64,000 bases of DNA from a virus (IMGVR_UViG_3300038426_000029:1-64000); one strand, 5' to 3'. Shown: positions 19,671 through 43,744, numbered from the stretch's first letter. The notes: generated from the letters alone by a model not told the origin. A program made the numbers and translations.

Positions 19671-20630
19671 CTAAGAATCTTGTATAATGGCTTTTATATA
19701 TCCAATTCCGAAATAAAAGCCAAGAATGATAGCAACTCTTAGTACTGTATAATTGTGATGGTTCTTTAAATCTACACTCATAATTGTAAAAATTAAGCCC
19801 CAGCTTCCAAAGAAAGCACCAATACAATCAATCAGTGGTCTTGTTCCAATAAAATACGGTATGAAGAAAAACACAGGACTTAGAAGAATTAATAATGATG
19901 GCAGAGAACGGGATGGAAGATAGAAATGTTTTACCCTCAACATCCTACCCCAACTCCAACCATAGCCAAAAATTTGCTTTTGGAATTGTTTTATTGTCTT
20001 TCTTTCGTGATGTATTACTGGTGAGTTTGGGACACCTAATAATCTATATCCTCTCTTACGTAGTCTATAATTCATCTCATAGTCTTCTGCACCACCAATA
20101 TCCTCATTAAATCCATCAACATCTGCTATTGCTTTTGTTCTATATACACTGTTATATCCGGGTAGGCTATTGACATATGTGAAATCATCATATTTTTGCG
20201 AGTGATTAGAAGCAAGTTTCATTACAGAATTTATTGCTTGTGAAAGTTCTGAGGAAGCGTCTGGTACACAACCAGAAGATATTCCTGCAATTGGCATTTC
20301 ACCAAAATTGTTTAGATCAGAAAACATCTCTTCCATATCATCTGCCCAAGTGTGTGGAACTTCCGTATCGCTGTCTAGGAAGGCAACAAGATCGGATGTA
20401 ACGTGCATGAGTCCTTGATTACAGGCAACTGCACGTTTACTTCCCTTTCCAAGAGACTTGGGTTCATCATAGATTTCACAGCCATATTTTTTGGCAATTT
20501 CCAGAGTTTTATCAGTTGAACAACCATCAACAATTATGATCCTGACAGGAATGGTTTGTTGTCTCAGTGATTTGAGACAGACTTCAAGTGTTCCTTCAGA
20601 ATTTTTTGTGGGTATAATTACATCAATCAT
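19671..20630 (-). CDS. Family 2 glycosyltransferase with C-terminal TM helices
   Basis: VIIPTKN, IIIVDGCSTD, FLDSD (DxD), GFNE...AEDYEM. Confidence 0.92.
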   Translation of the reverse strand: MIDVIIPTKNSEGTLEVCLKSLRQQTIPVRIIIVDGCSTDKTLEIAKKYGCEIYDEPKSLGKGSKRAVACNQGLMHVTSDLVAFLDSDTEVPHTWADDMEEMFSDLNNFGEMPIAGISSGCVPDASSELSQAINSVMKLASNHSQKYDDFTYVNSLPGYNSVYRTKAIADVDGFNEDIGGAEDYEMNYRLRKRGYRLLGVPNSPVIHHERKTIKQFQKQIFGYGWSWGRMLRVKHFYLPSRSLPSLLILLSPVFFFIPYFIGTRPLIDCIGAFFGSWGLIFTIMSVDLKNHHNYTVLRVAIILGFYFGIGYIKAIIQDS

Positions 20631-20631
20631 T

Positions 20632-20820
20632 TTAATCAGTCACATCTGGTGTTATCATAAAAGCCGCACAACCAAAGCCAAAAGAAATTTGTACTATAAT
20701 AACCGAATTAACTAATATACCAGCCATAACACCAATTGCTGAAATAATAGTTGTTTTAATTATCCATTGATACCATTTCATCACAAATACACCAACAACT
20801 TTGGTATGAATATTATACAT
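20632..20820 (-). CDS. Small membrane protein
   Basis: 62 aa, hydrophobic; true start probably later. Confidence 0.4.
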   Translation of the reverse strand: MYNIHTKVVGVFVMKWYQWIIKTTIISAIGVMAGILVNSVIIVQISFGFGCAAFMITPDVTD

Positions 20821-21128
20821 CCCACGAAGAATGTAAATATTGTGAATAGTAAAACAGCACCAGAACTAATATCCTTAATAATTTTTATTTGTGGATTGGG
20901 ATTTGGATCAATCATGTTGCATATTGCTTCTACGCAAGTATTCATCATTTCTAGTGCCATTAACATAGATGAACATATAAGAACAGCTATCCATTCCATT
21001 GGAGATGCACCAAACATAAAACACATAATAAATGTAATGGTTGTAAACGTAAGCAATAATAGTAGTTTGCTATTCACCAATGCTAACAATATTCCGTTTA
21101 ATCCGTATTTGAACATACAATACTCCAC
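20781..21128 (-). CDS. dgkA: DgkA-family diacylglycerol/undecaprenol kinase
   Basis: LEMMNTCVEAICN and IKIIKDISSGAVL signature; three TM helices. Confidence 0.88.
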   Translation of the reverse strand: MEYCMFKYGLNGILLALVNSKLLLLLTFTTITFIMCFMFGASPMEWIAVLICSSMLMALEMMNTCVEAICNMIDPNPNPQIKIIKDISSGAVLLFTIFTFFVGCIIFIPKLLVYL

Positions 21129-21511
21129 CAGTTTTTAAGTCTATATATTAAAGACAGAGACATAACACCATTATAATGATTAAATATTATATCCAAAAAA
21201 ATATGTATGAAATATCCAGCACCAAAATAAACAATATATTGATTATGAATAAAAAACATCAAACCAATAACAATTAACATAAATTCATAACTATGAAGAG
21301 GCAATATATAATGTGGTCTATCTGCAAGACCATCTGAGAGTTCTCTAAGTGAATATGTTGGTTTCCTATACCTGAGATAATAATCGAAACAATGATCAAA
21401 ATCTATCAACACACCACCAATAAAGAATGGAATTAAAAGATATAGATTATCCTTCGGTGCAAAGAATAGGAAAATTGCTATTATGATTATTGCATGGTGT
21501 GAGAAGTACAA
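21098..21511 (-). CDS. Membrane metal-dependent hydrolase (YdjM/DUF457-like)
   Basis: SHH...GGVLIDFDH...LHSY...GYFIHIFLD conserved His/Asp pattern. Confidence 0.65.
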   Translation of the reverse strand: MYFSHHAIIIIAIFLFFAPKDNLYLLIPFFIGGVLIDFDHCFDYYLRYRKPTYSLRELSDGLADRPHYILPLHSYEFMLIVIGLMFFIHNQYIVYFGAGYFIHIFLDIIFNHYNGVMSLSLIYRLKNWWSIVCSNTD

Positions 21512-21516
21512 ATAAG

Positions 21517-22380
21517 TTATACACCCTTCATAATTTCCATAGTTAGTGTAATGCCCATTTCCAAATCGTGAAGTGGCACAAACCCAAGTTTCACAATTTT
21601 ATCTATATTGTACCAAGACCTTTTTAGATCAAAAGCAGACATCTCATATGGAACAAAAACTATTTTAGCATCCGTTTGTCTGGATATAATTTCTGCAACA
21701 TCAAGCACACTTGACTCAACACCTGTACCAATATTGTATGTTTCACCACGTATGCCATCTTCTAACACAAGTTGAAGCCCATCAAGGGCATCATCTATGT
21801 AGATCATATCCCTTGTTTGCTTACCATCACCATAAACTGTGAGAGGTTCACCTTTTAATGCCTTGTTGATGAAAATGTTTACTGGTCCCTCAGTTCTATT
21901 CGGTCCATAGACACTACTGAAACGGATAATCCTTGCATTTACATTCTTCGTAATAACCCATTTTCTTAGGTATTGTTCTGCGGCATACTTGGATATTCCA
22001 TAGTTGCTGACAGGTATACACATTGAATATTCTGAGTGTGGTACATTTGAAAGTCCATAAACAGCACCAGAAGAGGTGTAGACCATCGGAATATCTGTAC
22101 CTTCCAAACATTTTAGAAGGTTGATCATCCCAAACTCGTTTATCTTTATGTCCATTTCTGGATTTTGTTCTCCGGGTTTGAGAAAGGCTTGGGCACAAAT
22201 ATGATAGACCTGATCTGGATCAAATTTATAAAAAACATCCATCAACCTATCACCATCTGTGATGTCATATCTTTCATCGTGTTTTATGTCGTAATTAAAG
22301 ACATCGTGACCTTGGCTCTTTAGTCTTTCGACTAGAGCATTTCCTACAAATCCAGAACCGCCTGTTACAAGTATTCTCAA
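21517..22380 (-). CDS. NAD-dependent nucleotide-sugar epimerase/dehydratase
   Basis: RILVTGGSGFVG, SSGAVYG, YGISK (YxxxK); TTG start at 22380 overlaps upstream TGA. Confidence 0.92.
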   Translation of the reverse strand: MRILVTGGSGFVGNALVERLKSQGHDVFNYDIKHDERYDITDGDRLMDVFYKFDPDQVYHICAQAFLKPGEQNPEMDIKINEFGMINLLKCLEGTDIPMVYTSSGAVYGLSNVPHSEYSMCIPVSNYGISKYAAEQYLRKWVITKNVNARIIRFSSVYGPNRTEGPVNIFINKALKGEPLTVYGDGKQTRDMIYIDDALDGLQLVLEDGIRGETYNIGTGVESSVLDVAEIISRQTDAKIVFVPYEMSAFDLKRSWYNIDKIVKLGFVPLHDLEMGITLTMEIMKGV

Positions 22381-23177
22381 TATATTTTCATCCTCACTTT
22401 TAATGCAACTTCCTCTGCCACAGGACAGGAACATGCATACTTTTTATAATATTTGTTTTGGTAAACCGTCTTTGGATAGTAACCATCCTTTGGACTGAGC
22501 ATACCCAATTCAGATTCGATAGCTATTTTGTGTAAACGCAAGTTTGTCAGACCTATGAAGGCACATAACCTTGGCATCTTGTAGTTGTAGCCTTCCATGA
22601 CTTTTTCACCGTTCTCATCGAATCCATGATTGCGAATCATTCTAGCTTTTTTATCTATGTCAGGATCGTCTGTAACCAAAGCACCACCCTCAAATGTCCA
22701 CAGGTTTTTTGAGGCATAAAAACTGAATGTGCCAACATCACCAATTGAACCTGCCCTTCTACCATCCTTGACTTTTGCACCAAAGGCTTGAGAGGCATCT
22801 TCAATGAACTTCACGGCTGAGTTGTCACAAATCTTCCTGATTTCGAGAAGGTTTTCTGTATTACCAAAGAGATCGACATTGAGAATCGTGCTAATACGAT
22901 TGTTTTCTTCCAGCTTTTTCTGTACAAGTTCTGGATCAAGACATAGAGTTTTTCTATCTATATCAACGAATATAGGCTTTCTACCTATCTGAAGAATTGG
23001 GTCAACGGTTGCTATGAATGTAAAGGGTGTGGTTATTACATCTGCCCAAGTGTCAGATGCAATTAAAGCAGTATGAATGGCAGATGTTCCATTTGAAACA
23101 GCAACGACATATTTAGTACCAATATATTTGGCAATCTCTTCCTCAAATAGCTTGATAACGTCATCAAACTCGTTCAA
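22377..23177 (-). CDS. DegT/DnrJ/EryC1/StrS PLP-dependent sugar aminotransferase
   Basis: VAVSNGTSAIH, TPFTFIAT, IEDASQAFGA, FSFYASKN..TFEGG, GYNYKM. Confidence 0.93.
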   Translation of the reverse strand: MNEFDDVIKLFEEEIAKYIGTKYVVAVSNGTSAIHTALIASDTWADVITTPFTFIATVDPILQIGRKPIFVDIDRKTLCLDPELVQKKLEENNRISTILNVDLFGNTENLLEIRKICDNSAVKFIEDASQAFGAKVKDGRRAGSIGDVGTFSFYASKNLWTFEGGALVTDDPDIDKKARMIRNHGFDENGEKVMEGYNYKMPRLCAFIGLTNLRLHKIAIESELGMLSPKDGYYPKTVYQNKYYKKYACSCPVAEEVALKVRMKIY

Positions 23178-23614
23178 TGTGATTCCTCATATATTTTCTT
23201 TTTAGCAAAGTATTTATTAATATCATATTTATATTTTGCTGGATTTCCAAAGTAAACCCCCTTATTATAGAGGGATTTTGTGACAACAGCAGACCCACCA
23301 ACAACAATTCCACTGGAAACTCTTATACCCGGAAATATTGTGCAACTACCGCCAAGTACAACATCATCTTCAATTGTTGGGGGTAAATTCTTACTACTTG
23401 GTGGATATTTGTCATTTAAGAATGTAACGTTTGGACCGATAAAAACCCTGTTACCAATTTTAGTTCCGTTTGGTATTGATACTCTACATTGAATGTTGCA
23501 ATCTTCACCAATCTCAACATCTGTACCGATGTCACAAAAAGCACCGATTTTTGTTCCCTTTCCTATAGATTTTGCCCTATTCACCGTTGGCTCATAGATA
23601 ATAGGATCAGACAT
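23174..23614 (-). CDS. Hexapeptide-repeat N-acetyltransferase (WbpD/WlbB-like)
   Basis: IGKGTKIG, VFIGPNVTFLNDKYP, VTKS...GNPA. Confidence 0.9.
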   Translation of the reverse strand: MSDPIIYEPTVNRAKSIGKGTKIGAFCDIGTDVEIGEDCNIQCRVSIPNGTKIGNRVFIGPNVTFLNDKYPPSSKNLPPTIEDDVVLGGSCTIFPGIRVSSGIVVGGSAVVTKSLYNKGVYFGNPAKYKYDINKYFAKKKIYEESH

Positions 23615-23740
23615 TGATTTACACCAATATTACGTTGTGGTTGATTTATAAATGTTATGGACACCGAAACACTTATAAACTCTCCTAAAAACAGTTCTGT
23701 GGGAATCCCCGTCTAAACGGAATCCTAAAGGTAAAACAAA

Positions 23741-24079
23741 ATGTCAAATAACGATTTTGATTTTCCATATTTCTCTGAAATTATGGATAATGAAGAAACA
23801 AAGGTATATGATGAGGTTTGCAAGTTGCCAACACTCAAACTTTTTGAAGAGTTTGACAAGACTATGGAAAATAGTGAGAACATCAAAAACAGAACTAGAT
23901 ATGATGTTATCAGAGGTGTGATAGCTGATAGGTTGGGACTTTTCCACAGGGATGTTGCTGGTCCTGCCATTGCTGGTGAAATAGCTGAGGCTAATGATAA
24001 AATAGAAGAGTTAGATCGTAAGTTCAAAAACCACAGACATGATACATCCAAGTCCTATTCAGGCAAATCAGAGTGGTGA
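23741..24079 (+). CDS. Hypothetical coiled-coil protein
   Basis: 112 aa, opposite strand within the glycan cluster; AAGGT RBS. Confidence 0.65.
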   Translation: MSNNDFDFPYFSEIMDNEETKVYDEVCKLPTLKLFEEFDKTMENSENIKNRTRYDVIRGVIADRLGLFHRDVAGPAIAGEIAEANDKIEELDRKFKNHRHDTSKSYSGKSEW

Positions 24080-24082
24080 CGG

Positions 24083-24247
24083 TTGGAAAAAACAGCACTT
24101 TACTGGATTGATAAAGCCATAAAAATAATCCTGTTCGTTCCAATTTTTATTATTTTACTTTTTGCTGATTATATGTTCTATCCAAATCAACAGCGATATG
24201 ATGTGGTTGAGGTATTGAAAGAGTGGTGGAATCAGACACCACAGTGA
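24083..24247 (+). CDS. Small single-TM protein (54 aa)
   Basis: Manual translation MEKTALYWIDKAIKIILFVPIFIILL...; GGTGA RBS before TTG. Confidence 0.5.
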   Translation: MEKTALYWIDKAIKIILFVPIFIILLFADYMFYPNQQRYDVVEVLKEWWNQTPQ

Positions 24248-24250
24248 TAA

Positions 24251-24841
24251 TCACCACCTGTGCATTATTGATACATTTACACTTCTCTGATGCTCAAAAA
24301 CGTTTTTGCCAACAAATCCATTAGCTATGAATTTATCAACAAGATACCCAGTATGAACCTCTATCACACATGGTGTGTGGTAATTTTTGAGTATGTCACC
24401 ATCAAGTAAACCGCCCTCATAACCTTCTATGTCCATCTCCATAAAATGGTGGGGTATTGAGAGCATATCAACTGAAAATGGTTTGCCTATAACGATGATG
24501 GGGTGAGTTTGGGCATTTTCTTTGAGGTATTTTAATGCAACAGGTTCCATTTCGACAGCTATTACCTGTTTAGCACCAAGTTCTTCTATATAGAATTTGG
24601 AAGTTTCTCCACACCCTGCACCAACATTTAGAACAGTTTTGCCAACTAGGGAAAATGGAGGTTTATAAAGTTTTCTCCATACAGGAAGTTCCCTATAATA
24701 TAAATTCTCGAATTCTGGTGAAAAAGACCAGCCTTTCAAACTAGACCTGCGGAACAACATCTTCCAAGGTATGGGTTGCCCATATGCAGTAAGATGAAGG
24801 GGCAATCCTGTATATTTAATTCCTAATTTATTTGTTTTCAT
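24251..24841 (-). CDS. FkbM-like class I SAM methyltransferase
   Basis: VLNVGAGCG, VIAVEMEP, MDIEGYE. Confidence 0.8.
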   Translation of the reverse strand: MKTNKLGIKYTGLPLHLTAYGQPIPWKMLFRRSSLKGWSFSPEFENLYYRELPVWRKLYKPPFSLVGKTVLNVGAGCGETSKFYIEELGAKQVIAVEMEPVALKYLKENAQTHPIIVIGKPFSVDMLSIPHHFMEMDIEGYEGGLLDGDILKNYHTPCVIEVHTGYLVDKFIANGFVGKNVFEHQRSVNVSIMHRW

Positions 24842-24965
24842 TTATTTTACTTCCGCTTTCCGCTTTAATTTCCGCTTTACGCTTCCGGTTCCGAGTTCAC
24901 GCTTGGTTGGTTCCAATCAACTAGCATTTTTATGTAGTATATATAAATAGAAGTGTTTATAAATG

Positions 24966-25667
24966 TTATTCTTTTTTACAGACAATTACTTTGTCATAAC
25001 AGAATTCGGTTAAGAACCTATTTTTATATGTCTTGTTTTCTACCTTATTATATAGGGATGTACTCACTTTTATTATATTATCAGGTCTTGAATTTTTTCC
25101 GAATATGGCTTTGTAAAATATAGAAAGTAGTCTAGGTATAAAATTTAGGTTATATCCATATAATTGTTCTATTTTGAATTTATTTAGCATACTTTTAGCT
25201 TGTGTGTTTGTATAATAGTGTGTTTTTTGGTTATATTCTGAATATTGTGATTGTAAGTTATTGGTATAAGTATTGATTTTTAATAAATTTTCAAGGTCTA
25301 TCAATAGTCTGTAGGCAGATAATGATGATTGAAAACTAATCACCAAAAATGAGCCTTTTTTTAAGACTCTGTAAAATTCATCAATCGCTTTTTGATCTTT
25401 TTCAACATATCCAATAACCAAAATACAGAAAACAAAATCAAATGTATTGTCTCTAAATGGCAAATTTTCTATAGAAGACTGTATAAAAGGTATATTTTCA
25501 ATATCTTTTGGCACTAAAACATCAACTGGAATAACGGAATAACCCATATTCATCAGATATTTTGTATATTTTAAATCACCAGCACCAGCATCCAGAATAA
25601 TATCTGAAGATTTTGCTAATTCTAACAGTTTCTTTAATGATGGATTTCCTATAATATTAATCAACAC
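24966..25667 (-). CDS. Class I SAM methyltransferase (Methyltransf_11)
   Basis: ILDAGAG, IENLPFRDNTFDFV, RVLKKG. Confidence 0.88.
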   Translation of the reverse strand: MLINIIGNPSLKKLLELAKSSDIILDAGAGDLKYTKYLMNMGYSVIPVDVLVPKDIENIPFIQSSIENLPFRDNTFDFVFCILVIGYVEKDQKAIDEFYRVLKKGSFLVISFQSSLSAYRLLIDLENLLKINTYTNNLQSQYSEYNQKTHYYTNTQAKSMLNKFKIEQLYGYNLNFIPRLLSIFYKAIFGKNSRPDNIIKVSTSLYNKVENKTYKNRFLTEFCYDKVIVCKKE

Positions 25668-26299
25668 CTTAATTTATTTACTTTCCATGCAATAATAGTT
25701 CTTAATATACTTTTATTGTGTGGTTTAAAAAAGTTTATAATGGTCATAACACTAGATACAATCATATACTCTAAACCACTCCAATAAATCCTGTTTATTA
25801 TCTTTGTATTAAAACCAAGTTTCTTAAAGTCTGTATCATACCATATAGATTTGTGATAATCAATAACATCATCACCCACTCTCGATAATGTATTACCATA
25901 TGGACATACAAATATAACAAGTTTGGCTTTATCTCTAAGATATTCAATCATTTTTAATACTTTTTCTTTATCCTCAATATGTTCTATAACTTCTGTACAT
26001 ATTATAATATCTAAATCTTTTATGATATTCTCTGGATATGGTATATTTATGGCATCATATAGATATACCTCTCTGATAAATGGCATCCACTTTTTTGCAA
26101 AATCTACATTGATTGGGTCTACATCTATACCAACAATATATGGTTCTCCACTAATTTTCTGGTTTCGATTTGCAAAAGACACTATTGTATGTGAAATCTG
26201 CCCACAACCAAAGCCAATATCCAGAATACGTGCCCCCTGAATATTTGCTGGTAATAAGTCAAGAATCGAATCTATATCGTGAAATGTACCATGTGCCAT
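25661..26299 (-). CDS. Class I SAM methyltransferase
   Basis: ILDIGFGCG, VGID, DIIICTEVIEHIE. Confidence 0.85.
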   Translation of the reverse strand: MAHGTFHDIDSILDLLPANIQGARILDIGFGCGQISHTIVSFANRNQKISGEPYIVGIDVDPINVDFAKKWMPFIREVYLYDAINIPYPENIIKDLDIIICTEVIEHIEDKEKVLKMIEYLRDKAKLVIFVCPYGNTLSRVGDDVIDYHKSIWYDTDFKKLGFNTKIINRIYWSGLEYMIVSSVMTIINFFKPHNKSILRTIIAWKVNKLRC

Positions 26300-26304: not shown

Positions 26305-26820
26305 TCATCCACTTGATTGCTGTTTTTCCTTACTTTTTTCTTTTGTTTCATAAATGAAATCAATATATGTACTAATTCTATATGGTCTATCAATGTGCCA
26401 AATTGGTAGTTCACCCTCTTTTAATATTGGTTTGTGTCCTTCATAATAATCTACATCATAGTGCCAAGTATCCATACTCTGAGTTAATGGTGGTTCCCAT
26501 AGCCTTTTTCTATCTGGTCCACGCTTACCGATGTGAATGTGCCTTCTAACATCTTTTTCGTGTTCCCTCAGATATATCACAGATCGTGGTTTGACTTTAG
26601 ACACATCATCACGTATTCCGAACACAGTTTCCACACCAAGCATCTGATTGAGTTTAGATACAGTCTCAACATATTTATCCGTTTCGGTATAAACTTCCTC
26701 AACATACTTTGGTCTTAAATGAAGTACCCTACATACAGAATAAACAATGAGTTTTATGCCCCTTTGCATAGCATATATGTAGTCCAAGTCTGGATTGTCC
26801 CAATCGAATAGAACTTTCAT
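26305..26820 (-). CDS. Hypothetical protein, possibly deacetylase-like
   Basis: VLFDWD, HIH and IWH could be metal ligands; weak. Confidence 0.45.
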   Translation of the reverse strand: MKVLFDWDNPDLDYIYAMQRGIKLIVYSVCRVLHLRPKYVEEVYTETDKYVETVSKLNQMLGVETVFGIRDDVSKVKPRSVIYLREHEKDVRRHIHIGKRGPDRKRLWEPPLTQSMDTWHYDVDYYEGHKPILKEGELPIWHIDRPYRISTYIDFIYETKEKSKEKQQSSG

Positions 26821-34539: not shown

Positions 34540-34904
34540 TTTTTACCTTTCTCCTTTCCAAAGTGTATTTCCCAAAAAATCCAAATCCAAACACCACTAG
34601 TATATGCACCAAATCCTATAAGGACAAGAGATGTTAATCTTAACCAAGGCACAAAATATGTAATTGCAGAAATTGTTAAAAGCCCACAACCAATGACAAA
34701 TTCTTTGATTGTTGGTGGTTCAAGATTGTACTCATCATTACGAAATATAAAATAAATAAGGATAAAACCCAAACCACCTATTGTTAATAAAAACGTACCT
34801 AAATGTTTCTCTGGACTTATAAAATCTACAATTCCAGCAACCAATATGAGTATAGAAAACATATATAATGATACTGGATTTGGTGGATCACCTACGATAC
34901 TCAA
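34536..34904 (-). CDS. Four-TM membrane protein
   Basis: 122 aa, hydrophobic; coupled to neighbours. Confidence 0.6.
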   Translation of the reverse strand: MSIVGDPPNPVSLYMFSILILVAGIVDFISPEKHLGTFLLTIGGLGFILIYFIFRNDEYNLEPPTIKEFVIGCGLLTISAITYFVPWLRLTSLVLIGFGAYTSGVWIWIFWEIHFGKEKGKN

Positions 34905-35964: not shown

Positions 35965-36209
35965 TTGATGTTTAATTCCTTAAAACCAATTTTTTCACAA
36001 AACTTAAATAAAATATAACCATACATAAAAATGAATGGTATTGAAATAAACCCGCAAACAATTTCAACAGCATCATTAGTTATAAGCATTGTATTAAATA
36101 ATTCTTGCGATCCAACAAACAATCCACCCAAAAAAGATACCGTTAATATAGCAAAGGCAGTAGAAACAGTTATAAATAAAATAAAATAAAAATCGTTAAT
36201 TTTGCTCAT
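35961..36209 (-). CDS. Small two-TM protein
   Basis: 82 aa; ATGA overlaps. Confidence 0.6.
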   Translation of the reverse strand: MSKINDFYFILFITVSTAFAILTVSFLGGLFVGSQELFNTMLITNDAVEIVCGFISIPFIFMYGYILFKFCEKIGFKELNIK

Positions 36210-37405
36210 TTGACATTCAACTCTTTCACTAATCTACGTTGCATACTGATTATAAATGTTATGGTTCCCAGCATCAGAGAAGCTATAAAACTTATACCAC
36301 AGATGAGTGCCATAGATATATTGAGTTTGAATGTTTCGAGATATAAACCTGTCGTGTATAGACCAGAGAATAATGATGTTAAGAATAAGATGGCTGTTGG
36401 TATTCCAATATATGTGTAGGGTCTATTCCATACAGCACCCCAGAATATTATCTCAATGAGTGTCAGACCCTGATATATAAATTTTGTGGGATGTTCTGGT
36501 TTGTTATAAGTGACATTACATGGCACATCTGTTATGTTTAAACCCTTCTCTCTTGCCCTATTAATTATCTCAAGGGATGCTTCCATTCCATCTGCTGTCA
36601 AATGTAGCCTATCAATTGCAAATTTATTATATGCCCTGAAACCGCACTGAGTATCACCAATACCATAGATCATATTAATTCCCTGAACAACAACTCTTCT
36701 ATGGTAAGGCATATTATTTGTTACTGAAAACCTATTACCAACAACAATATCTGAATCTTGAATTTTATCTAAAAACTTTGGAATTTCATTAGGATCATGC
36801 TGTCCATCTCCATCAAGCGTAATGAGGACATCATAATCATTAACCTTAGCATATTTGAAGATTTCTTGTAAAGCTCTGCCATATCCAGACCAATCAAATT
36901 CTAGAACCTTAGCACCATAAGATTTTGCAAGAAAAGCTGTTCCATCTGTTGATCCATTGGAAACAACAAGAACATCACCATATTTCTTGGACTCTTTTAC
37001 TACATCTTTAATGTTATCCTGTTCATTATATGCAGGAATACCAATCAGGATATTATGACCTAATGGAAACTTCACTTTTAGTGTATTATCTAATAGTGCC
37101 ATTTCCTCTGGATCGGTTGATTCTGCATCACAGGCAACAAAATGATAGTGTTCTGGTATTGAGCAGTGTGTAGAATCACAGAAATACCAAGGCTTGATAC
37201 CGACATACTTGTTCATGTATTCTATGAGCTTGGCTTTGACACGTATCTGTTCTTCAAAAGTAGGTTTATCAGAGTGTCTAATTATGCTGGACATCAGACG
37301 AATTTTATGCCCTTTCTTATCTTTAGTTTCCACAACATATACTAATTCATCTGTGTAAATAAGTTTTTCTCGTTGAGGAATAGTACAGAGTGAACATTCA
37401 GACAT
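36206..37405 (-). CDS. HIT-like domain fused to a DPM1-like GT2 (polyprenol-phosphate glycosyltransferase) with C-terminal TM helices
   Basis: N-terminal CSLC..LIYTDELV..RH..EEQ..SIPEHYHF; then IGIPAYNE, TLDGDGQHDP, DTQCGFRAY. Confidence 0.85.
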   Translation of the reverse strand: MSECSLCTIPQREKLIYTDELVYVVETKDKKGHKIRLMSSIIRHSDKPTFEEQIRVKAKLIEYMNKYVGIKPWYFCDSTHCSIPEHYHFVACDAESTDPEEMALLDNTLKVKFPLGHNILIGIPAYNEQDNIKDVVKESKKYGDVLVVSNGSTDGTAFLAKSYGAKVLEFDWSGYGRALQEIFKYAKVNDYDVLITLDGDGQHDPNEIPKFLDKIQDSDIVVGNRFSVTNNMPYHRRVVVQGINMIYGIGDTQCGFRAYNKFAIDRLHLTADGMEASLEIINRAREKGLNITDVPCNVTYNKPEHPTKFIYQGLTLIEIIFWGAVWNRPYTYIGIPTAILFLTSLFSGLYTTGLYLETFKLNISMALICGISFIASLMLGTITFIISMQRRLVKELNVK

Positions 37406-37406
37406 T

Positions 37407-37667
37407 TTAATTACCTCTCAAAATTGAATTCTTTGAGAAATAATCATCATATACCACCAAAATTATTGTATATAAAATCGTTATAATAAGAATTGTTTGT
37501 ATTATTGGGTTATAACTTAAAGCACACAGTGTCCTAGCAGGTTCGGTTTGTATCACAGCCGTTGTATAACCCATTGGACAAAAAACCATGAAACAAAAAA
37601 GAATAGAAATTACATCTACATAGACAGATATATGAAATATTTGTTTTTTGTCTATGTTGATTGACAT
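37407..37667 (-). CDS. Small two-TM protein
   Basis: 86 aa, hydrophobic. Confidence 0.55.
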   Translation of the reverse strand: MSINIDKKQIFHISVYVDVISILFCFMVFCPMGYTTAVIQTEPARTLCALSYNPIIQTILIITILYTIILVVYDDYFSKNSILRGN

Positions 37668-37673: not shown

Positions 37674-38351
37674 TTACACAACTGGTTTTAAAGCTGTTTT
37701 CCATTTTTCAGTGAATTCTTTTACAGCTTCCTCTGTTTTGGGATGTTTGTACATCTCATTTAGGACTTTGTACGGAACTGTTACAATATCAGCACCGCTA
37801 TCCATACAGACCTGAACATCCTCTGGACTTCTGATACTTCCACAGATTAGGAGTGGTCTATCACCACTACCAAATCTCTGTAAATATTCGGCTGTTATTC
37901 TGATCTGTTCCTTTGCGTAATCAAAGTTCTTGAAATCAATCATTCTCCTGTAGAAAAGGGAGATATAATATGGTTCTGACTCAAGACCAATGATAGCCTG
38001 ATAAGCAGACATTAGACATGTTAGATTTACTGGAATATGTTTTCTTTTTAAAGCATTTATTAATTCTGATGTGCGAGTATCAATCATAGGTACTTTTACT
38101 ACTACCTTTTCCATACAACACATATAGTATTCTGTTGCTTCATCAACAAGTTTATCTATAGATAAAAATGGATCAATCAACTCAACAGATACATCATATA
38201 TATCATATTGACATATATCATGTATCATCTTCTGTATGTCTTTCACACCAGATTTTGCCATTAGACTTGGGTTGGTTGTAATACCATCACATAAACCAAG
38301 GCTAAGAATCTCATCTATCTCTTTCAAGTCTGCCGAATCTAAGTATAATAT
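37674..38351 (-). CDS. tal: Transaldolase/fructose-6-phosphate aldolase (TalC/Fsa family); probable ATA start
   Basis: GITTNPSL, VVVKVP (Schiff-base Lys), VNLT, SIRS; frame extends to ILYLDSAD, covering the conserved Asp, with GGAGG 10 nt upstream. Confidence 0.9.
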   Translation of the reverse strand: MLYLDSADLKEIDEILSLGLCDGITTNPSLMAKSGVKDIQKMIHDICQYDIYDVSVELIDPFLSIDKLVDEATEYYMCCMEKVVVKVPMIDTRTSELINALKRKHIPVNLTCLMSAYQAIIGLESEPYYISLFYRRMIDFKNFDYAKEQIRITAEYLQRFGSGDRPLLICGSIRSPEDVQVCMDSGADIVTVPYKVLNEMYKHPKTEEAVKEFTEKWKTALKPVV

Positions 38352-38746
38352 AGCCCAACATCCTCCATATACGTTTTTAACATTTCTTCATTTATCTCAG
38401 TCTTTTTGTTCAGTTTAGTAATCATATCTATAGCAGTTAGAACTGTTATTTTTTCGTGTCTAGCTAGATATAGTGCGACCACAAACGCTGAACGAGACTT
38501 ACCTTCACGACAATGAATTAGTATTCTCTTTCTTTTATTAACTTGTTCTCTAATCTTCTTCAAGACTAGATTATAGTGCTTAATAGGATTGTGACCATCC
38601 ACTAGATGGAACTTATAATCCTCAAATCCTGTATCACTTCCACCCACATTTATAACGAAACAAATATTATTACTTCTAAGATCGTCTAAAGTATATTTAT
38701 CGTTTCCTATAAATATATCTTCTGTTATTTTTGTTATCGACATCAT
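38339..38746 (-). CDS. Dual-specificity (Cys-based) phosphatase
   Basis: ILIHCREGKSRS (HCxxGxSRS) P-loop. Confidence 0.9.
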   Translation of the reverse strand: MMSITKITEDIFIGNDKYTLDDLRSNNICFVINVGGSDTGFEDYKFHLVDGHNPIKHYNLVLKKIREQVNKRKRILIHCREGKSRSAFVVALYLARHEKITVLTAIDMITKLNKKTEINEEMLKTYMEDVGLYYT

Positions 38747-39312
38747 GTTACCTTCAATACATTTATTTCCGATACTAATGCATGTGCTAAGACACTATGT
38801 ATTCCCTCAACTATATAAGGATTTCTTGTATCTACACAGAGTGAAATATCACATAACTCTTTTAAATTACCACCATTATTGCCTATAAAAGCATATCTAT
38901 AACCGTGCATAGATTTAAAATACTTTGCTAAATTAAACAAATTAGAACTCCACAACTCATCATTCGGACTCTTGCCACTTGAACCATTCACACTAGCCAT
39001 AATGAGAATGTCACCATTCTTGATCCTACCCTTGACAACGGAAGAGTAAACATCATCCCAACCATCATCATTTATCTTGGCTGTGAGGGAGGGGACATTA
39101 TCTGTTATGCAGATTGCTTGTATTCCAAGGTTTGTAAGGTCTGATGCTAAGTGACTCATCGTTGCTGACGAACCACCATTACCAACTAACCACACCGTAG
39201 CATTAAAACGGTGTGCCCTGATGAAAATTGCATTTGCAATATCTTTTATAAGAATTATATTCGTTTCTGGTAAATATTTTACAACTTCATCAATTACCTG
39301 TCTAGCTGTCAC
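38743..39312 (-). CDS. gmhA: Sedoheptulose-7-phosphate isomerase (SIS domain)
   Basis: LVGNGGSSATMSHLASDL, TDNVPSLTA..NDDG, VEGIHS. Confidence 0.88.
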   Translation of the reverse strand: MTARQVIDEVVKYLPETNIILIKDIANAIFIRAHRFNATVWLVGNGGSSATMSHLASDLTNLGIQAICITDNVPSLTAKINDDGWDDVYSSVVKGRIKNGDILIMASVNGSSGKSPNDELWSSNLFNLAKYFKSMHGYRYAFIGNNGGNLKELCDISLCVDTRNPYIVEGIHSVLAHALVSEINVLKVT

Positions 39313-40243
39313 CTGCTATCACCTCTGAGCCTGTATATGTCATTTTGAATGGAACATATGCCCTACTCTCGAAACAACCAGACTGAAGAATTTTTGTTCT
39401 TGTTTTATTATCTGGAATAACTACCATGAGGAATCCACCACTACCTGCACCGACTAATTTTCCACCAATAGCACCGTTTTGTCTCAATTCATCATAGAGA
39501 TTATCTATCTCTGGTGTAGACATCTCAGGTGAAATTGTCTTTTTAATTTTCCAGTGATCATCCATAAGTTCACCAAGTTTTTGATAATCCAGATTCATAA
39601 TAGCCTTAGCGGATTCTCTACCAATCTCTTCAATATCTTTAAGTTGCCGTGTGGATTCCTTTACAGTATTGAGTATCCTTCCCGAATCACGTATATTTGA
39701 GGTATAAATTAACATTAAGTGGTTTGTAAGTTCTGGTTCTGTGAGAATTATATCATCAACTTTACCATCCCTACCAATCATATAAACTCTAGTTCCACCA
39801 AAAGAAGCCGAATATTGATCCTGCTTTCCGATGGGTCTTGAAAGATTGTTCCGTTCAATGGAATATGCCTGTTCAGCCAAGTCGGTTTTACTTATTGTAG
39901 GATTAAATGCCTTTATTGCACCAACTGTGAAAGCACCAGAAGAACCTAATCCTGAACTTCCGGGTAGATCAGCAAATGTGATAAATTCCTGATTCTGCCA
40001 TATGTTAAACTTCTTGAATATCTCCCTGATTATTGGATGTTGAATATCTCGATTGCCTTTAGTAATTTCTAGATTTGAATAAACTATTCTAAGTTCTTTC
40101 TCAAACCTAGTGTTTATAGCTATATATATGTATTTGTCGATTGTAGCTGAAATCCAGAAACCACCGTTTTCTTGATAGTATTCTGGTATGTCTGTTCCAC
40201 CACCCCCAAGTGTTATACGTAAAGGTGTTCTTGTAATGATCAT
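39302..40243 (-). CDS. hddA: D-glycero-D-manno-heptose-7-phosphate kinase (GHMP family)
   Basis: TRTPLRITLGGGGTD, GSSGLGSSG, GKQDQY...FGG, GGKLVGAGSGGF. Confidence 0.9.
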   Translation of the reverse strand: MIITRTPLRITLGGGGTDIPEYYQENGGFWISATIDKYIYIAINTRFEKELRIVYSNLEITKGNRDIQHPIIREIFKKFNIWQNQEFITFADLPGSSGLGSSGAFTVGAIKAFNPTISKTDLAEQAYSIERNNLSRPIGKQDQYSASFGGTRVYMIGRDGKVDDIILTEPELTNHLMLIYTSNIRDSGRILNTVKESTRQLKDIEEIGRESAKAIMNLDYQKLGELMDDHWKIKKTISPEMSTPEIDNLYDELRQNGAIGGKLVGAGSGGFLMVVIPDNKTRTKILQSGCFESRAYVPFKMTYTGSEVIAGDS

Positions 40244-40872
40244 ACTAAACGACCACCACTGGTTTTTGGCACATGAAATATAAGTGAATAATGTGTTTGT
40301 AAATCATTCATCTTTTTCTTTTTACAATTTCCTACCTCAAAAATCATAACATCACCATTTTGCTTTTTTGCATAAACATCTACAGCATAACGATGTCCAT
40401 TAATTGTTATAAATCTCTCTGTTTCTACAACCATACCAAGAGAACGTATTTCGTTTGCTATTTTATTTTTTATAGTTTTATGTTCATCAGACTCTCTTGA
40501 AATATTAAGATATTTAGCATCATTTTCAAAATATATATGAAGTTTATTACTAATTGAATCTAATGTTTTTTGTGAATAGACATTTGTTTTTCCTTTATTC
40601 CAAGGAATGTGCCCTATATTAGCATCACTAATTCTTTTTACACTTTCATTATTATACTTAGTTTTACCAATATTCCAAACGGTTCGTTCACCATTTTCAT
40701 ATAATTTTTTTAAACTTTTAGATGTCTTTTCTTTTTGTTCTTCTGAAACACACATACCTTTCTTAGTTTTTGATATATTATCCCCCCATTCCCTGCTTCT
40801 GGGCTTTCCATTAAACGGATGTATGTGTACCTTGCCACACTTACGGCAGAGTCCATAGTTATGTCCTTTCAC
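40240..40872 (-). CDS. NUMOD3-repeat protein with C-terminal PD-(D/E)xK-like nuclease domain (copy 1)
   Basis: Basic NUMOD3-like repeats; C-terminal ERFITINGHRYAVDVYA...IFEVG shared with three paralogs. Confidence 0.7.
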   Translation of the reverse strand: MKGHNYGLCRKCGKVHIHPFNGKPRSREWGDNISKTKKGMCVSEEQKEKTSKSLKKLYENGERTVWNIGKTKYNNESVKRISDANIGHIPWNKGKTNVYSQKTLDSISNKLHIYFENDAKYLNISRESDEHKTIKNKIANEIRSLGMVVETERFITINGHRYAVDVYAKKQNGDVMIFEVGNCKKKKMNDLQTHYSLIFHVPKTSGGRLV

Positions 40873-40914
40873 TTTTTAAATCACCAGAAACAACACATTC
40901 TAACAATAGACATT

Positions 40915-41586
40915 CTATTTAGATTTCTCCATAGGTTTCGATTTATTAACACAATATAGTACTATCAAGATGTTTATAAACCTGTTGATCATAAAATAAG
41001 GTGAATTCCAATAACTAGCTATAATACTACTATTCTCTGTTGGAACTGGTGATCTAAAATATAAGAATAATATTGAAATGATAACACCAGATAAAACAGC
41101 AATTATTGTTTTTCTATCACTTTTCCATCCACAGGTAATATATATGAAAAGAACAAACAAAAGACCAACAAGCTGTAAGAAAATATCTATCACAAATCCT
41201 TTTTGAAGTACGTTATATATAATTGTTGGTGCTTCCCAGAAAAATCTTCCTACACCAACAGACACAACCGAAATAGCAAATGCTTGTGGGAAGTCCCATT
41301 TTCTATCAACCATAAGGTACATTATAAATGAAAGACCAATAAAACCATAAAAAGATATTAAATATGTTATAGAAGTAGCATTTAATATATATGTTAAATA
41401 TGATCCATTAGACTGTATAAATGTATAAAATACTTGCATAAATAGTGTAAATAAAAGACCAATATACAAAAATATATATATTTTGTTTAACTTTGATGTT
41501 TTATAGTAGTAGAACATTATTGCAAAAGCAGGAAGTATCCACATCACAAAATATGCTAATAGTGACATTAAAGTTGCTTCATCCAT
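40915..41586 (-). CDS. Multi-pass membrane protein (array member, weakly related)
   Basis: 223 aa, about 6-7 TM helices. Confidence 0.65.
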   Translation of the reverse strand: MDEATLMSLLAYFVMWILPAFAIMFYYYKTSKLNKIYIFLYIGLLFTLFMQVFYTFIQSNGSYLTYILNATSITYLISFYGFIGLSFIMYLMVDRKWDFPQAFAISVVSVGVGRFFWEAPTIIYNVLQKGFVIDIFLQLVGLLFVLFIYITCGWKSDRKTIIAVLSGVIISILFLYFRSPVPTENSSIIASYWNSPYFMINRFINILIVLYCVNKSKPMEKSK

Positions 41587-41588
41587 TT

Positions 41589-42257
41589 TTAAAACCTTGG
41601 TGATTCAATTTTATAATTTTCTTCTTTACCATGCTCAACTAGGTAGTAAAATAGGAAGAACGTTGTTGTACGCATAAACAGCCAAAAGACATTGGCGTTT
41701 GGATCATAATTATAGGAACTACCGACGGCAAAGTGTGTCCAGAAACCATTAATCCACAAAGCAAGATAACCAATTCCCTGTAAAAGTAGAAGCCCTACTG
41801 TCTTTAGTTTATCAGAAATACTCAACTTTTTCTTCAATATTGGATAGTGTTTATTCAAAATTAGAAGAATCCAGTAAAACCACACAATTACGGTCACATC
41901 CGTGATGAACATGATATTCCAAACACCATTTATTGCAAAGTTATTGAAGTCCCATAGAAATCCACCAAAGTAACTATGTATGGCAACTATGAGAAAAGAA
42001 GCAACTATTCTAGTTATAATAGGAATATGTTTTAATACTCTTTGATACATCATAAAAGCAATTGAAAACAATATCATAGAATAACTATGAACATAATTAA
42101 TTGTGAATGGAATCTGTGATACTGCATATATACTTTTGGTCTGTAAAATAGGAATGGTACAATATATAATGATCAAAATTGGAATAACCCAAGTCACTAT
42201 AACATTTATATTTTTACTTAGTTTTGGGTTGTTCATGTTTCTTCGTTCGTTCCTCAT
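41589..42257 (-). CDS. Multi-pass membrane protein (array member)
   Basis: 222 aa; DPNANVFW resembles the DPHNWLW motif of neighbours. Confidence 0.65.
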   Translation of the reverse strand: MRNERRNMNNPKLSKNINVIVTWVIPILIIIYCTIPILQTKSIYAVSQIPFTINYVHSYSMILFSIAFMMYQRVLKHIPIITRIVASFLIVAIHSYFGGFLWDFNNFAINGVWNIMFITDVTVIVWFYWILLILNKHYPILKKKLSISDKLKTVGLLLLQGIGYLALWINGFWTHFAVGSSYNYDPNANVFWLFMRTTTFFLFYYLVEHGKEENYKIESPRF

Positions 42258-42765
42258 GTTGCTTTTTGTTAAGTATCATTGGGTATAGGAACCATACGCC
42301 AAGTCCCTTGTTAATCATCCACAGCCAATCATGTGGATTTGGTGTTGTCATACCAGAAGCCAACCAAGCACGTACTAGTGGATAGTAACCTGTAAATGTG
42401 AAGATATAAAATGTTGAAAGTTCAATCAAATATAAAGCAATGCTCAGTTTGGTTAGATGTATGAATTTAAACAAATAATTACAGACAATAAGTGCTACAA
42501 ACAATCCGATAACCACAACAATATACTGCATAAAATAGGAATTTATATTTGTCTCATATGTCATATACTGCCAAATGGATTCATAAAGATCATTTCCAAA
42601 AGCACCCAATAAATAAGCTAACATAAGGGCATAGACAATGTTTGTATATCTAGATATTTTATAGAAAGCCACAAAACAGAAAACTGCATATGTTACAAAT
42701 GACCAAACGTGAAGCTGATAACCACCAATATGAACTTCTAATAATAAAAGATTATAAATCCACAA
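42214..42765 (-). CDS. Multi-pass membrane protein, paralog of 42777-43337
   Basis: HVWS, NDLYESIW, TPNPHDWLWMINKGLG. Confidence 0.7.
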   Translation of the reverse strand: MWIYNLLLLEVHIGGYQLHVWSFVTYAVFCFVAFYKISRYTNIVYALMLAYLLGAFGNDLYESIWQYMTYETNINSYFMQYIVVVIGLFVALIVCNYLFKFIHLTKLSIALYLIELSTFYIFTFTGYYPLVRAWLASGMTTPNPHDWLWMINKGLGVWFLYPMILNKKQHEERTKKHEQPKTK

Positions 42766-42776
42766 CCAGAAGTCGA

Positions 42777-43337
42777 TTATTGACGTTTTCTCTTTCCCCC
42801 CTTCAATCTTAAATTTCGCTGTTCCTTACTCAATATAAGCGGATATAAAGCAAAAGCACCCAAACCCTTATTGATCATCCATAACCAATTATGTGGGTCT
42901 GGTGTTTGTCCACCAGACAAGAACCAAGGTCTAAGTACCTCATAATGCCCTGTGAAATATAATACAAAAAATGAAAGAATTTCAAGAGAAATTAAAATAA
43001 CAAAAGTTTTATTTATTCTTAAAAATACTGTTTTTCTATTAACGACAAACAAAAGGACAACAAGAGAACTTAGAATTATCATATCTTGTGGTATTAACAC
43101 TGTTCTGGATGGAATCTGTGCAAAGGCTGTCCAGATAGTTTCATAAAAATCATTTGCTATTATACCAACTAAAAGAGTTAATAATGCACTAATAACAATA
43201 TTATAATACTTGGAGATTTTATAAAATGCAACTAAACAAAAGGCAATATATACAACCAAAGACCACACGTGGATATTACCAAGAGAAGGTATTGTGGAAA
43301 GTAAAAAAAGATAAAATTCTTCAAACATTAGAGCCAT
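42777..43337 (-). CDS. Multi-pass membrane protein, paralog of 42214-42765
   Basis: HVWS, NDFYETIW, TPDPHNWLWMINKGLG. Confidence 0.7.
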   Translation of the reverse strand: MALMFEEFYLFLLSTIPSLGNIHVWSLVVYIAFCLVAFYKISKYYNIVISALLTLLVGIIANDFYETIWTAFAQIPSRTVLIPQDMIILSSLVVLLFVVNRKTVFLRINKTFVILISLEILSFFVLYFTGHYEVLRPWFLSGGQTPDPHNWLWMINKGLGAFALYPLILSKEQRNLRLKGGKRKRQ

Positions 43338-43744
43338 TGCCCTTTATTCTTTCTCTTGGGTGCTAATCCTGTTAAGTATCCTAATGCACCAACTGTTAAT
43401 GAATAGTTCCAGAAAGCGGCAACCAGAATTGCACAAATATCCGCTATAATTAATGGTAAAATACTAACAAGAGATGAAAGAACTAAATAATTTACGGCAG
43501 TTCCACCTATACCACAAATAATAGCATAATTACCAAAACTCCAAATTTTCTTATAAAAACTTGCAATTGGACCTGAATCATCAGAAATCTTATCCAAACC
43601 GAGAAGAATTAATCTAGACATTGGGTTGTCAATTGTTTGTGTAGATTCATTTACCTCAATAACCTTCTTATTCTCAGCTACTTTGAGTTGTGACTTTAAG
43701 TTTTCAACTTGTTGCTTGAGTAATTCTAATTCTGTTGTTGACAT
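43328..43744 (-). CDS. GtrA-like membrane protein (lipid-linked sugar flippase) with N-terminal coiled coil
   Basis: FGNYAIICGIGGTAVNY...AILVAAFWNYSL pattern. Confidence 0.65.
   Translation of the reverse strand: MSTTELELLKQQVENLKSQLKVAENKKVIEVNESTQTIDNPMSRLILLGLDKISDDSGPIASFYKKIWSFGNYAIICGIGGTAVNYLVLSSLVSILPLIIADICAILVAAFWNYSLTVGALGYLTGLAPKRKNKGQWL

Follow-up and report, generated by a model that had tools for sequence, protein, structure and literature searches.

A putative lipid-linked glycosylation island with a miniature STT3/AglB-type enzyme on a virus-like element of uncultured archaea

Can a virus-like element carry its own membrane-bound route for building a glycan on a lipid carrier and passing it to an acceptor, and how much of such a route is encoded in its DNA? 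The question is raised by a stretch of 64,000 nucleotides (nt) recorded as viral (IMGVR_UViG_3300038426_000029, positions 1–64,000; hereafter the window), in which positions 19671–43744 hold a dense block of sugar-related genes (the island). An earlier note on this DNA had proposed a self-contained pathway by which the virus builds, flips and transfers its own heavily modified glycan onto virion or host surface proteins. Our analysis favours a narrower reading, to which we assign a probability of roughly 0.6: the island, borne by a low-G+C virus-like element of uncultured archaea, would direct the synthesis of a dolichol-phosphate-linked glycan and its transfer by a miniature oligosaccharyltransferase (OST), most probably to protein.

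The island is a real, operon-like block. Consistently with the one-strand, tightly packed arrangement described before, all 33 open reading frames (ORFs) lay on the minus strand, and 26 of the 32 junctions were either overlapping (18, mostly by 4 nt) or separated by no more than 12 nt (8); the block covered 24,074 nt, or 37.6% of the window, close to the "about 40 percent" of the earlier note. The sole long gap (636 nt, 23615–24250), which may separate two transcription units, contained no convincing gene, the overlapping weak ORFs on its two strands matching no family. G+C content was 30–37% over the whole island, without a compositional break at the edges, and since it equalled that of the flanks, composition gives no sign that the island entered its replicon recently. 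Pfam and NCBIfam profile matches, judged against gathering and equivalog cut-offs, gave family calls for 28 of the 33 genes and reproduced nearly all of those made before (three GT2 glycosyltransferases, WecB, two SDR proteins, DegT, the acyltransferases, DgkA and the GT-C enzyme), while five membrane proteins and one soluble protein of 171 amino acids (aa) had no assignable family.

The enzyme on which our reading turns is the GT-C glycosyltransferase.

29583–31154, minus strand: GT-C glycosyltransferase, 523 aa; Pfam STT3 (PF02516) 42.3 bits against a cut-off of 24.5, residues 73–244

The protein has about 11–12 transmembrane (TM) helices and an external C-terminal domain of about 150 aa, and it carries E48-E49, R137, E145, H189, SISD at 259–262, R321 and W398-W399-x-D401. 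A search of 5.8 billion proteins turned up no more than 12 close relatives, and sequence searches against solved structures matched no chain. When its AlphaFold2 (AF2) model was compared with known structures by Foldseek, the top 18 matches were all STT3, AglB or PglB and spanned residues 8–523; over the same residues, VIA-align gave Z scores of 14–17 against OSTs. The earlier note had named structural failure of the GT-C call as a way in which its proposal could fall; the modelled structure was STT3/AglB-like and the call survived. Between external loop (EL) 2 and EL5 the sequence was shorter by about two membrane helices, which together with the model points to about 11 TM helices, an inside N-terminus and an outside C-terminus.

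Alignment of the GT-C family with six canonical WWDYG-bearing AglB proteins from Asgard and Methanophagales genomes placed the following motifs opposite each other.

EL2: GT-C S-E-N-M-I-Y-R-S-S...F-N-S-T-E; AglB S-R-S-T...F-Y-D-N-E
EL5: GT-C S-I-S-D; AglB S-V-S-E
GT-C L-I-A-P-T-R; AglB L-L-A-P-S-A
GT-C E-W-W-T-D; AglB S-W-W-D-Y-G
C-terminal end: GT-C final K-I-Y-K-W; AglB terminal V/I-K-I/L-Y strand

R137 and E145 thus aligned with the R...DNE motif of AglB, E145 being the E of DNE. An exhaustive HMMER search of 1.84 billion representative sequences returned about 55–60 full-length family members of 445–552 aa and nothing else substantial, and all those sampled were unannotated metagenomic singletons. 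Five residues (E145, H189, R321, E379 and R470) were invariant in 30 of 30 diverse members; R137 was kept in 29, D401 in 28 and W398 in 24 of them, the EL1 acidic position (the E48-E49 pair) was E or D in 29, and the EL5 acid (262) was D or E in 25. Run against 301 Asgard genomes, the family profile retrieved canonical AglB/STT3 proteins of 700–1300 aa in 48 (E 1e-8 to 1e-5).

With AglB of A. fulgidus (3WAK/7E9S), PglB of C. lari (3RCE) and human STT3A (6S7O), the island enzyme shares the GT-C fold, the EL1 acidic pair, the R...E of EL2, an SVSE-like motif ahead of the final TM block, a W-W about 30 residues past the last TM helix and a terminal K-I-Y-type beta-strand. It differs from them in its size (523 aa; 445–552 in the family), in its roughly 11–12 instead of 13 TM helices, in an external domain that is mostly gone, in having W-aromatic-x-D for WWDYG and in lacking the DK/MI segment. 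Judged by sequence and modelled fold, the protein belongs with the OST family, from which it appears to descend, and is predicted to work in an OST-like manner; because the two defining motifs, WWDYG and DK/MI, fail, it cannot be filed as a canonical AglB, and the family of this 523-aa protein represents a miniature branch of the OST superfamily that has not been described before.

At the other end of the proposed route stands the enzyme that would charge the lipid carrier.

36206–37405, minus strand: polyprenyl-phosphate GT2, 399 aa, of the DPMS/AglJ/GtrB/ArnC type; GT2 by family profile, matching the AglJ model

The AglJ model of NCBIfam matched this protein (GT2-399) with an E value of 3.9e-31 over positions 3–291 of 293, under the equivalog cut-off. 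Its AF2 model reached a pLDDT of 86, and the best Foldseek matches were ArnC, dolichyl-phosphate mannose synthase (DPMS) and GtrB (E 1e-15 to 1e-12), interface and TM helices included; against the Dol-P-Man synthase of P. furiosus (5mlz) a Z score of 20.7 was obtained over residues 114–388. Behind the GT-A catalytic domain come interface helices and then two TM helices at the C-terminus, and in its model GT2-399 folds like DPMS, ArnC and GtrB. Residues 1–115 make up a separate domain with the motif order CxxC, GH, RH, HxH, in which C4, C7, G32-H33, R36, H44, H86, H88 and C92 were invariant in 24 homologues (39–83% identity). Both the motif order and the order of strands and helices in the AF2 model fit HIT proteins, with the third His replaced; in alignment with six HIT proteins all motifs were matched, weakly (hhalign E 7e-4, probability 27%), and Pfam recognised no HIT domain in the 24 homologues, nor did a PDB sequence search match this domain.

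These two enzymes are part of a core that recurs in metagenome contigs. In the synteny check suggested by the earlier note, four related contigs (L001–L004) shared with the island, in the same order and at 47–76% identity, GT2-399, an SDR, the radical SAM enzyme, the GT-C, two methyltransferases, a second GT2 (GT2-332), WecB, the 171-aa protein and a further methyltransferase, while the decorating genes around this core varied between the window and its relatives. On L003 (16 kb), a 554-aa protein with 12 TM helices (2920–4584) lay directly upstream of the miniature GT-C, and an N-acetyl-sugar amidotransferase-like gene (7409–8521; PDB 8wex, E 8e-6) had no counterpart in the window; three hexapeptide acyltransferases and a GT1/GT4-like gene were also present. 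The island and its relatives thus combine a stable core with variable decoration, and this conservation of the core with exchange of the decorating genes suggests selection for glycan diversity.

Around the two lipid-directed enzymes, the island encodes further membrane-associated proteins.

19671–20630, minus strand: GT2, 319 aa, with DSD motif and three C-terminal TM helices (PF00535, E 8e-23); candidate elongating transferase
20781–21128, minus strand: DgkA-family lipid kinase, 115 aa (PF01219, E 2.1e-23)
21098–21511, minus strand: membrane protein, 137 aa, weakly YdjM-like (membrane hydrolase; PF04307, E 6.9e-4, below cut-off)
27896–28894, minus strand: GT2, 332 aa (GT2-332), with two C-terminal TM helices (PF00535, E 3.9e-13); candidate elongating transferase
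34536–34904, minus strand: protein of 122 aa with 3 predicted TM helices, no family match; candidate translocation helper
35961–36209, minus strand: small membrane protein, 82 aa (TM scan), no family match
37407–37667, minus strand: small membrane protein, 86 aa (TM scan)
40915–43337, minus strand: four multi-TM proteins of 223, 222, 183 and 186 aa (TM scan), no Pfam match
43328–43744, minus strand: 138-aa protein with an N-terminal coiled coil and two TM helices; PF04138 sub-threshold

The first of these GT2 enzymes also gave weak matches to AglJ, AglG and MftF-type models of NCBIfam, and GT2-332 was kept in both L002 and L003. The DgkA-family protein, a small protein with three TM helices, scored 82.5 bits against a cut-off of 22.3 and covered positions 2–102 of the 102 of the profile; from its sequence, it may act as a polyprenol (dolichol) kinase. 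The translocation step is where the earlier proposal of a GtrA-like flippase gave way: the 138-aa protein consists of a coiled coil and half a GtrA domain, its match to PF04138 staying below threshold (19.1 bits against a cut-off of 26.1) and covering only positions 4–46 of 117, its alignment with genuine GtrA reaching E 2e-3 at a probability of 12%, and none of its seven homologues carrying PF04138 or a GtrA annotation. A GtrA identity of the three small TM proteins near GT2-399 was rejected as well (hhalign E 0.3–0.6). By elimination only, the four multi-TM proteins at 40915–43337 are flippase candidates. The last two of them (42214–43337) are tandem 4-TM paralogues of 183 and 186 aa, with 42% identity and a PDPHxWLWMINKGLG-type motif, and belong to no family; an Atlas look-up for a membrane paralogue produced nothing beyond weak leads.

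The sugar-building and decorating enzymes make up most of the remaining genes; a synthetase just outside the island and a nuclease gene within it are listed with them.

17869–19059, minus strand: S-adenosylmethionine (SAM) synthetase, archaeal type (PF01941, E 1.7e-124, full length); outside the island
21517–22434, minus strand: SDR, 4,6-dehydratase-like (Pfam, NCBIfam)
22377–23177, minus strand: compact DegT aminotransferase, 266 aa, SFYASK lysine kept (Pfam, NCBIfam)
23174–23614, minus strand: hexapeptide acetyltransferase of NeuD/PglD type (Pfam, NCBIfam)
24251–24841, minus strand: class-I SAM methyltransferase, weak match (Pfam, E 1.6e-4)
24966–25667, minus strand: class-I SAM methyltransferase, 233 aa (Pfam Methyltransf_11/25/31); L003 copy 59% identical
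25661–26299, minus strand: class-I SAM methyltransferase (Pfam Methyltransf_11/25/31)
26305–26820, minus strand: soluble protein, 171 aa, no Pfam or NCBIfam match
26817–27908, minus strand: WecB, non-hydrolysing UDP-GlcNAc 2-epimerase (TIGR00236, 301 bits against an equivalog cut-off of 210)
28891–29556, minus strand: SAM methyltransferase, 221 aa (PF08241); 63–70% identical in L002 and L003
31120–31764, minus strand: SAM methyltransferase, 214 aa (Pfam Methyltransf_23/11), adjoining the GT-C in L001–L003 also
31761–32477, minus strand: SAM methyltransferase (Pfam Methyltransf_24)
32490–33260, minus strand: hexapeptide-repeat O-acyltransferase of Vat/CatB/WbbJ type (NCBIfam, E 1e-34 to 1e-19)
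33184–34539, minus strand: cobalamin-binding (B12) radical SAM enzyme, HpnJ-like (TIGR03471, E 5e-56; PF04055)
35011–35964, minus strand: SDR sugar epimerase/reductase (PF01370, E 2.9e-28), resembling GalE and heptose 6-epimerase
37674–38327, minus strand: transaldolase/fructose-6-phosphate aldolase (FSA) (Pfam)
38339–38746, minus strand: Cys-based dual-specificity phosphatase (Pfam)
38743–39312, minus strand: GmhA-like SIS isomerase (Pfam; NCBIfam GmhA 58 bits, under equivalog cut-off)
39302–40243, minus strand: HddA-like GHMP kinase (Pfam; NCBIfam HddA 129 bits, under equivalog cut-off)
40240–40872, minus strand: paralogue of NUMOD3-repeat nucleases, 210 aa (BLASTP, E 1e-14 to 1e-18)

Six methyltransferases had been counted before and six were matched, one of them weakly; the adjacent SAM synthetase probably feeds them. 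The second SDR (35011–35964) scored 80 bits with the GalE and 56 bits with the heptose_epim models of NCBIfam, both under their cut-offs. Identity of the radical SAM enzyme was 58–76% in L002–L004 and 61% in L005, a contig binned with a Heimdallarchaeota metagenome-assembled genome (MAG). The 171-aa protein adjoins WecB in all relatives, its copies in L002 and L003 (61–66% identical) lying directly downstream of that gene; a language-model look-up pointed weakly to sulfotransferases, and a PAPS-loop motif could not be seen. We considered whether the compact DegT is a frameshifted pseudogene and rejected it: the motif of the pyridoxal phosphate-binding lysine and the C-terminal end of the family stand in one 266-aa frame, and inspection of the sequence left no space for a missing domain. 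The product of 40240–40872 resembled the nucleases encoded at 44504–45220, 49822–50676 and 61886–62854 (BLASTP), which marks its gene as a mobile nuclease gene lodged within the island, not a sugar gene.

Put together, these functions suggest the following scheme, in which we infer the substrates, the order of the steps, the substrate of the lipid kinase, the flippase and the acceptor. Host precursors would be turned into unusual sugars: WecB would yield N-acetylmannosamine; the dehydratase-like SDR, the compact DegT and the acetyltransferase a 4-acetamido-4,6-dideoxy-type sugar; and the transaldolase, the GmhA-like and HddA-like proteins and the phosphatase a heptose. The DgkA-family kinase would replenish the pool of polyprenol phosphate, onto which the GT2 of DPMS/AglJ/GtrB fold with its HIT-like domain would load the first sugar, and the two membrane-anchored GT2 enzymes would extend the chain. 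Six SAM methyltransferases, two acyltransferases and the B12 radical SAM enzyme would decorate it, with SAM supplied by the adjacent synthetase; some other protein would translocate the lipid-linked glycan, and on the outer face the miniature STT3/AglB-type GT-C would hand it over to an acceptor that is most probably a protein.

Several observations weigh against this scheme. The AF2 model of the GT-C, built on an alignment of 12 close relatives, was of moderate confidence (pLDDT 58); PMT and DPY19 scored similarly to OSTs against it, PMT on the membrane part only; and hhalign comparison with single AglB proteins gave probabilities of 34–56%, with the WW placed consistently in one of two cases. 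WWDYG is replaced by W-W-T-D in the protein and by W-aromatic-x-D in the family, the Asp being shifted by one position and YG absent, and the DK/MI (DxxK...I) segment, which forms the Ser/Thr pocket, falls in a gap against the six AglB sequences. Glycosylation at Asn-X-Ser/Thr is therefore not assured, and it is mainly because of these altered sequon-binding motifs that we do not rate protein N-glycosylation higher. On the sugar side, the matches to GmhA and HddA were far under their equivalog cut-offs and hold at family level only, and Pfam and NCBIfam searches of the window found no sugar-1-phosphate nucleotidyltransferase (NTP_transferase type) and recognised no flippase of the Wzx/AglR/MurJ type (MOP family). 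A possible acceptor encoded next to the island gave no encouragement:

45312–49574: 1420-aa protein with a signal-peptide-like start, an external part of about 1200 aa and six C-terminal TM helices

This protein had no family and no relatives in IMG/VR, and it was not enriched in sequons (21 N-X-S/T against 18.9 expected from composition). Finally, no capsid, portal or terminase was matched in the window by Pfam or PHROG.

The earlier description is accordingly trimmed at several points. "Self-contained" is too strong, because the nucleotidyltransferase and the flippase were not found and the GtrA candidate is a sub-threshold half-domain; host functions or unrecognised proteins are therefore needed, and the pathway would depend on host UDP-GlcNAc, dolichol and cofactors, perhaps also on a host flippase. 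Polyprenol-linked assembly stands in so far as the DPMS-type GT2, the two further GT2 enzymes, the kinase, the GT-C and the tailoring genes span it, and falls short at the unrecognised flippase. The heptose claim is kept for the presence of GmhA-like and HddA-like genes, both at the low scores already given; the NDP-heptose set (GmhA, HddA, GmhB, HddC) was incomplete in the window, where an HAD-type GmhB and the nucleotidyltransferase were not found. The Cys-phosphatase and the HIT-like domain are possible stand-ins for the absent NDP-heptose enzymes, and we hypothesize that the HIT-like domain supplies the missing sugar-1-phosphate nucleotidyltransferase activity. Transfer onto virion or host surface proteins, the last part of the earlier proposal, loses ground with the altered WWDYG, the missing DK/MI and the unenriched 1420-aa protein.

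The nature of the donor can be narrowed down. Neither GlmS, GlmM or GlmU nor a phosphoglycosyl transferase (AglH/WecA type) was found in the window, and with a DPMS-type starter but no phosphoglycosyl transferase, the donor glycan would be expected to sit on dolichol monophosphate, the arrangement of euryarchaeal Agl pathways. A host with diphosphate-linked donors would explain why the element has its own transferase and lipid kinase. The most far-reaching version of our reading, in which the GT-C is the first virus-borne OST, founds a miniature OST family and caps a complete, element-encoded dolichol-monophosphate route of N-glycosylation, we hold to be tentative and on balance doubtful.

Among the alternatives, a remodelling system of the Gtr or Arn kind is unlikely: in it, a dolichol-phosphate monosaccharide made by the DPMS-like GT2 would be flipped by small membrane proteins, and the GT-C would add single modified sugars to glycans or lipids of the host surface, altering receptors and blocking superinfection as gtrABC does for temperate phages. 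In favour of it, GT2-399 matches GtrB and ArnC no less well than DPMS, three small TM proteins (82–122 aa) flank it much as ArnE and ArnF stand beside ArnC, one protein resembles half a GtrA, the GT-C has changed or lost the motifs by which OSTs bind sequons, and a tyrosine recombinase in the window would permit a temperate lifestyle. However, the GT-C sequence is nearest to STT3/AglB and not of ArnT/PMT type, with OST matches that extend over the C-terminal domain; three GT2 enzymes, together with over ten that tailor sugars, point to an oligosaccharide and not to one sugar; and the GtrA match is sub-threshold. Phage gtrABC and bacterial ArnC/ArnE/ArnF/ArnT do share with the island a polyprenol-phosphate GT2, small membrane proteins and a GT-C, the gtrABC trio also being borne on mobile elements (GtrB structure, PMC4728340), whereas the STT3-like GT-C, the half-length GtrA-like protein, the roughly 20 sugar-tailoring genes and the archaeal host set the island apart.

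It is similarly improbable that the sequence is non-viral, that is, a plasmid-like element or the chromosome of a small-genome archaeon whose own cell-envelope glycosylation locus is the island. Here the gene content of the window is informative. The flanks carry RFC-like, PD-(D/E)XK, primase-like and PrimPol-like genes, a dCMP deaminase, Dam and a tyrosine recombinase; there are four NUMOD3 nuclease paralogues, the ORFs have a median length of 175 aa and mostly no family, and no tRNA, rRNA or Rfam family was found in 64 kb. The short, mostly unassignable ORFs, the four homing-type nuclease paralogues, Dam and the recombinase, together with the lack of RNA genes, argue against a cellular chromosome, while the lack of a capsid or packaging hallmark in 64 kb and cellular-type genes such as the SAM synthetase and the RFC-like gene argue for one or for a plasmid. 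From this content we consider it very probable that the sequence is a mobile element, virus or plasmid-like, and somewhat probable that it is a virus proper; the earlier note's "the virus" is too firm, since a viral nature has to be read from gene content in which capsid, portal and terminase genes were not matched. A Borg-like element was rejected, only nine short and imperfect tandem repeats being present. The backbone of the element also encodes two adjacent DUF5658 membrane proteins (3682–4050 and 4096–4449), and its dCMP deaminase lies at 4616–5107 (PHROG, E 1e-39).

Size and distribution bear on the same question. The record that contains the window has 107,838 nt, and the element is thus at least 108 kb long; an identical copy of the 138-aa protein (43328–43744) occurred on 35 contigs, the largest of 213,709 nt, and the element may exceed 200 kb and recur in many assemblies. 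A contig of 213.7 kb lies beyond the range of 3–188 kb given by one 2026 catalogue of archaeal viruses (PMC13465236), a point for a non-viral origin. A GT2 52% identical to GT2-399 was seen three times on contigs of about 197 kb, and, judging from matching contig sizes, relatives of the GT-C and of GT2-399 appear to co-occur on contigs of 60,040 and 28,275 nt. Relatives of the radical SAM enzyme, the SDR and the GT-C on contigs binned with a Heimdallarchaeota MAG also favour a cellular locus. One of these, L007 (2.7 kb), holds a radical SAM enzyme, a miniature GT-C and a methyltransferase, and is the site of the only GT-C family member that the profile search found in 301 Asgard genomes; the other, L005 (3.5 kb), reads SDR-SDR-radical SAM. 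Their genes were 26–61% identical to those of the island, at a G+C content of 40–45%, and the two contigs represent either a mis-binned related element or a cellular source of the module. Since they are only 2.7–3.5 kb long, their binning is weak evidence, and it gives at most a weak taxonomic hint to the host.

Against a cellular origin, the GT-C family was missing from 300 of the 301 Asgard genomes and unseen in a pattern scan of 185,579 species genomes with the GT-C profile. The earlier note had foreseen that the island might turn out to match a host chromosomal agl or lipopolysaccharide locus; the island is no copy of a known chromosomal agl locus, and cellular genomes are essentially without the GT-C family. 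Virus collections were equally sparse: in IMG/VR, no relatives were found of the GT-C (by sequence and profile), of GT2-399 (by sequence), or of the 1420-aa protein and a 364-aa ATPase-like protein, and neither the GT-C nor the primase-like protein found a counterpart by tblastn in 50,697 records of phages and archaeal viruses. One further contig, L009 (IMGVR_UViG_3300029288_004207; 80.5 kb, 32% G+C, predicted viral), is a second virus-like contig with a lipid kinase beside a polyprenol-phosphate glycosyltransferase: within 20 kb it carries two DPMS-like GT2 genes, a DgkA-like gene, WecB, an SDR and a methyltransferase, 27–37% identical to those of the island, and a GT-C was not found in the 20 kb examined.

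We regard it as very unlikely that the island makes a glycolipid, or else a polysaccharide of the secreted or capsular kind, put together on the lipid carrier and joined to a lipid or polymer by the GT-C, for although the GT2 at 19671–20630 weakly matches lipid glycosyltransferase families (Glyco_transf_21), the HpnJ-like radical SAM enzyme belongs to a bacterial lipid (hopanoid) sugar pathway and the DK/MI motif is absent from the GT-C, no Wzy/Wzz-type polymerase or chain-length gene was found and the GT-C has its nearest relatives among enzymes that N-glycosylate proteins.

The preferred reading, a dolichol-phosphate-linked glycan transferred by a miniature OST, is best placed among known systems by comparison with the Agl pathway of Haloferax volcanii (AglJ, AglG/I/E, AglP, AglB, AglD/AglS and AglR). 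Euryarchaeal Agl pathways and the island have in common a DPMS-like GT2 that starts on dolichol monophosphate, further GT2 enzymes, a SAM methyltransferase step and a final GT-C; the island differs in lacking an AglR/Wzx flippase, in its many more tailoring enzymes, in its own lipid kinase and SAM synthetase, in the HIT-like domain fused to the initiating transferase and in being borne by a mobile element. Among viruses, chloroviruses and mimivirus encode glycosylation gene clusters, and to our knowledge the known viral clusters use soluble glycosyltransferases. The Asgard virus GuangzhiV1 has a 5.5-kb glycosylation module, likewise with soluble glycosyltransferases (PMC13700489). These clusters and the island all contain sugar-nucleotide tailoring genes, glycosyltransferases and a methyltransferase, and presumably serve to decorate virion or host proteins; in none of the others was a GT2 that acts on a lipid carrier found combined with a GT-C and a lipid kinase, and the island is about four times the size of the GuangzhiV1 module. 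Viral glycosylation clusters as such are thus known already, whereas a virus-borne STT3/AglB-type enzyme, of which the literature searched held no report, or a lipid-carrier route this large was not found in the searched literature and virus collections.

Until now, membrane-bound glycosylation on a lipid carrier with an STT3-type enzyme as its last step has counted as a property of cells. If the complete N-glycosylation route that we hold to be doubtful were real, it could run alongside the host machinery and cover proteins of the virion or host surface in a glycan rich in methyl and acetyl groups; and if the element is viral, the boundary between host-dependent and autonomous viral glycosylation shifts. 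The selection for glycan diversity suggested by the stable core and its exchanged decoration is what would be expected of an arms race between virus and host at the cell surface. For the OST superfamily, the roughly 55–60 STT3 relatives of 450–550 aa represent the smallest OST-like scaffold in this analysis. They amount to nature's own test of what an OST can do without, and might also provide glyco-engineering with a compact enzyme.

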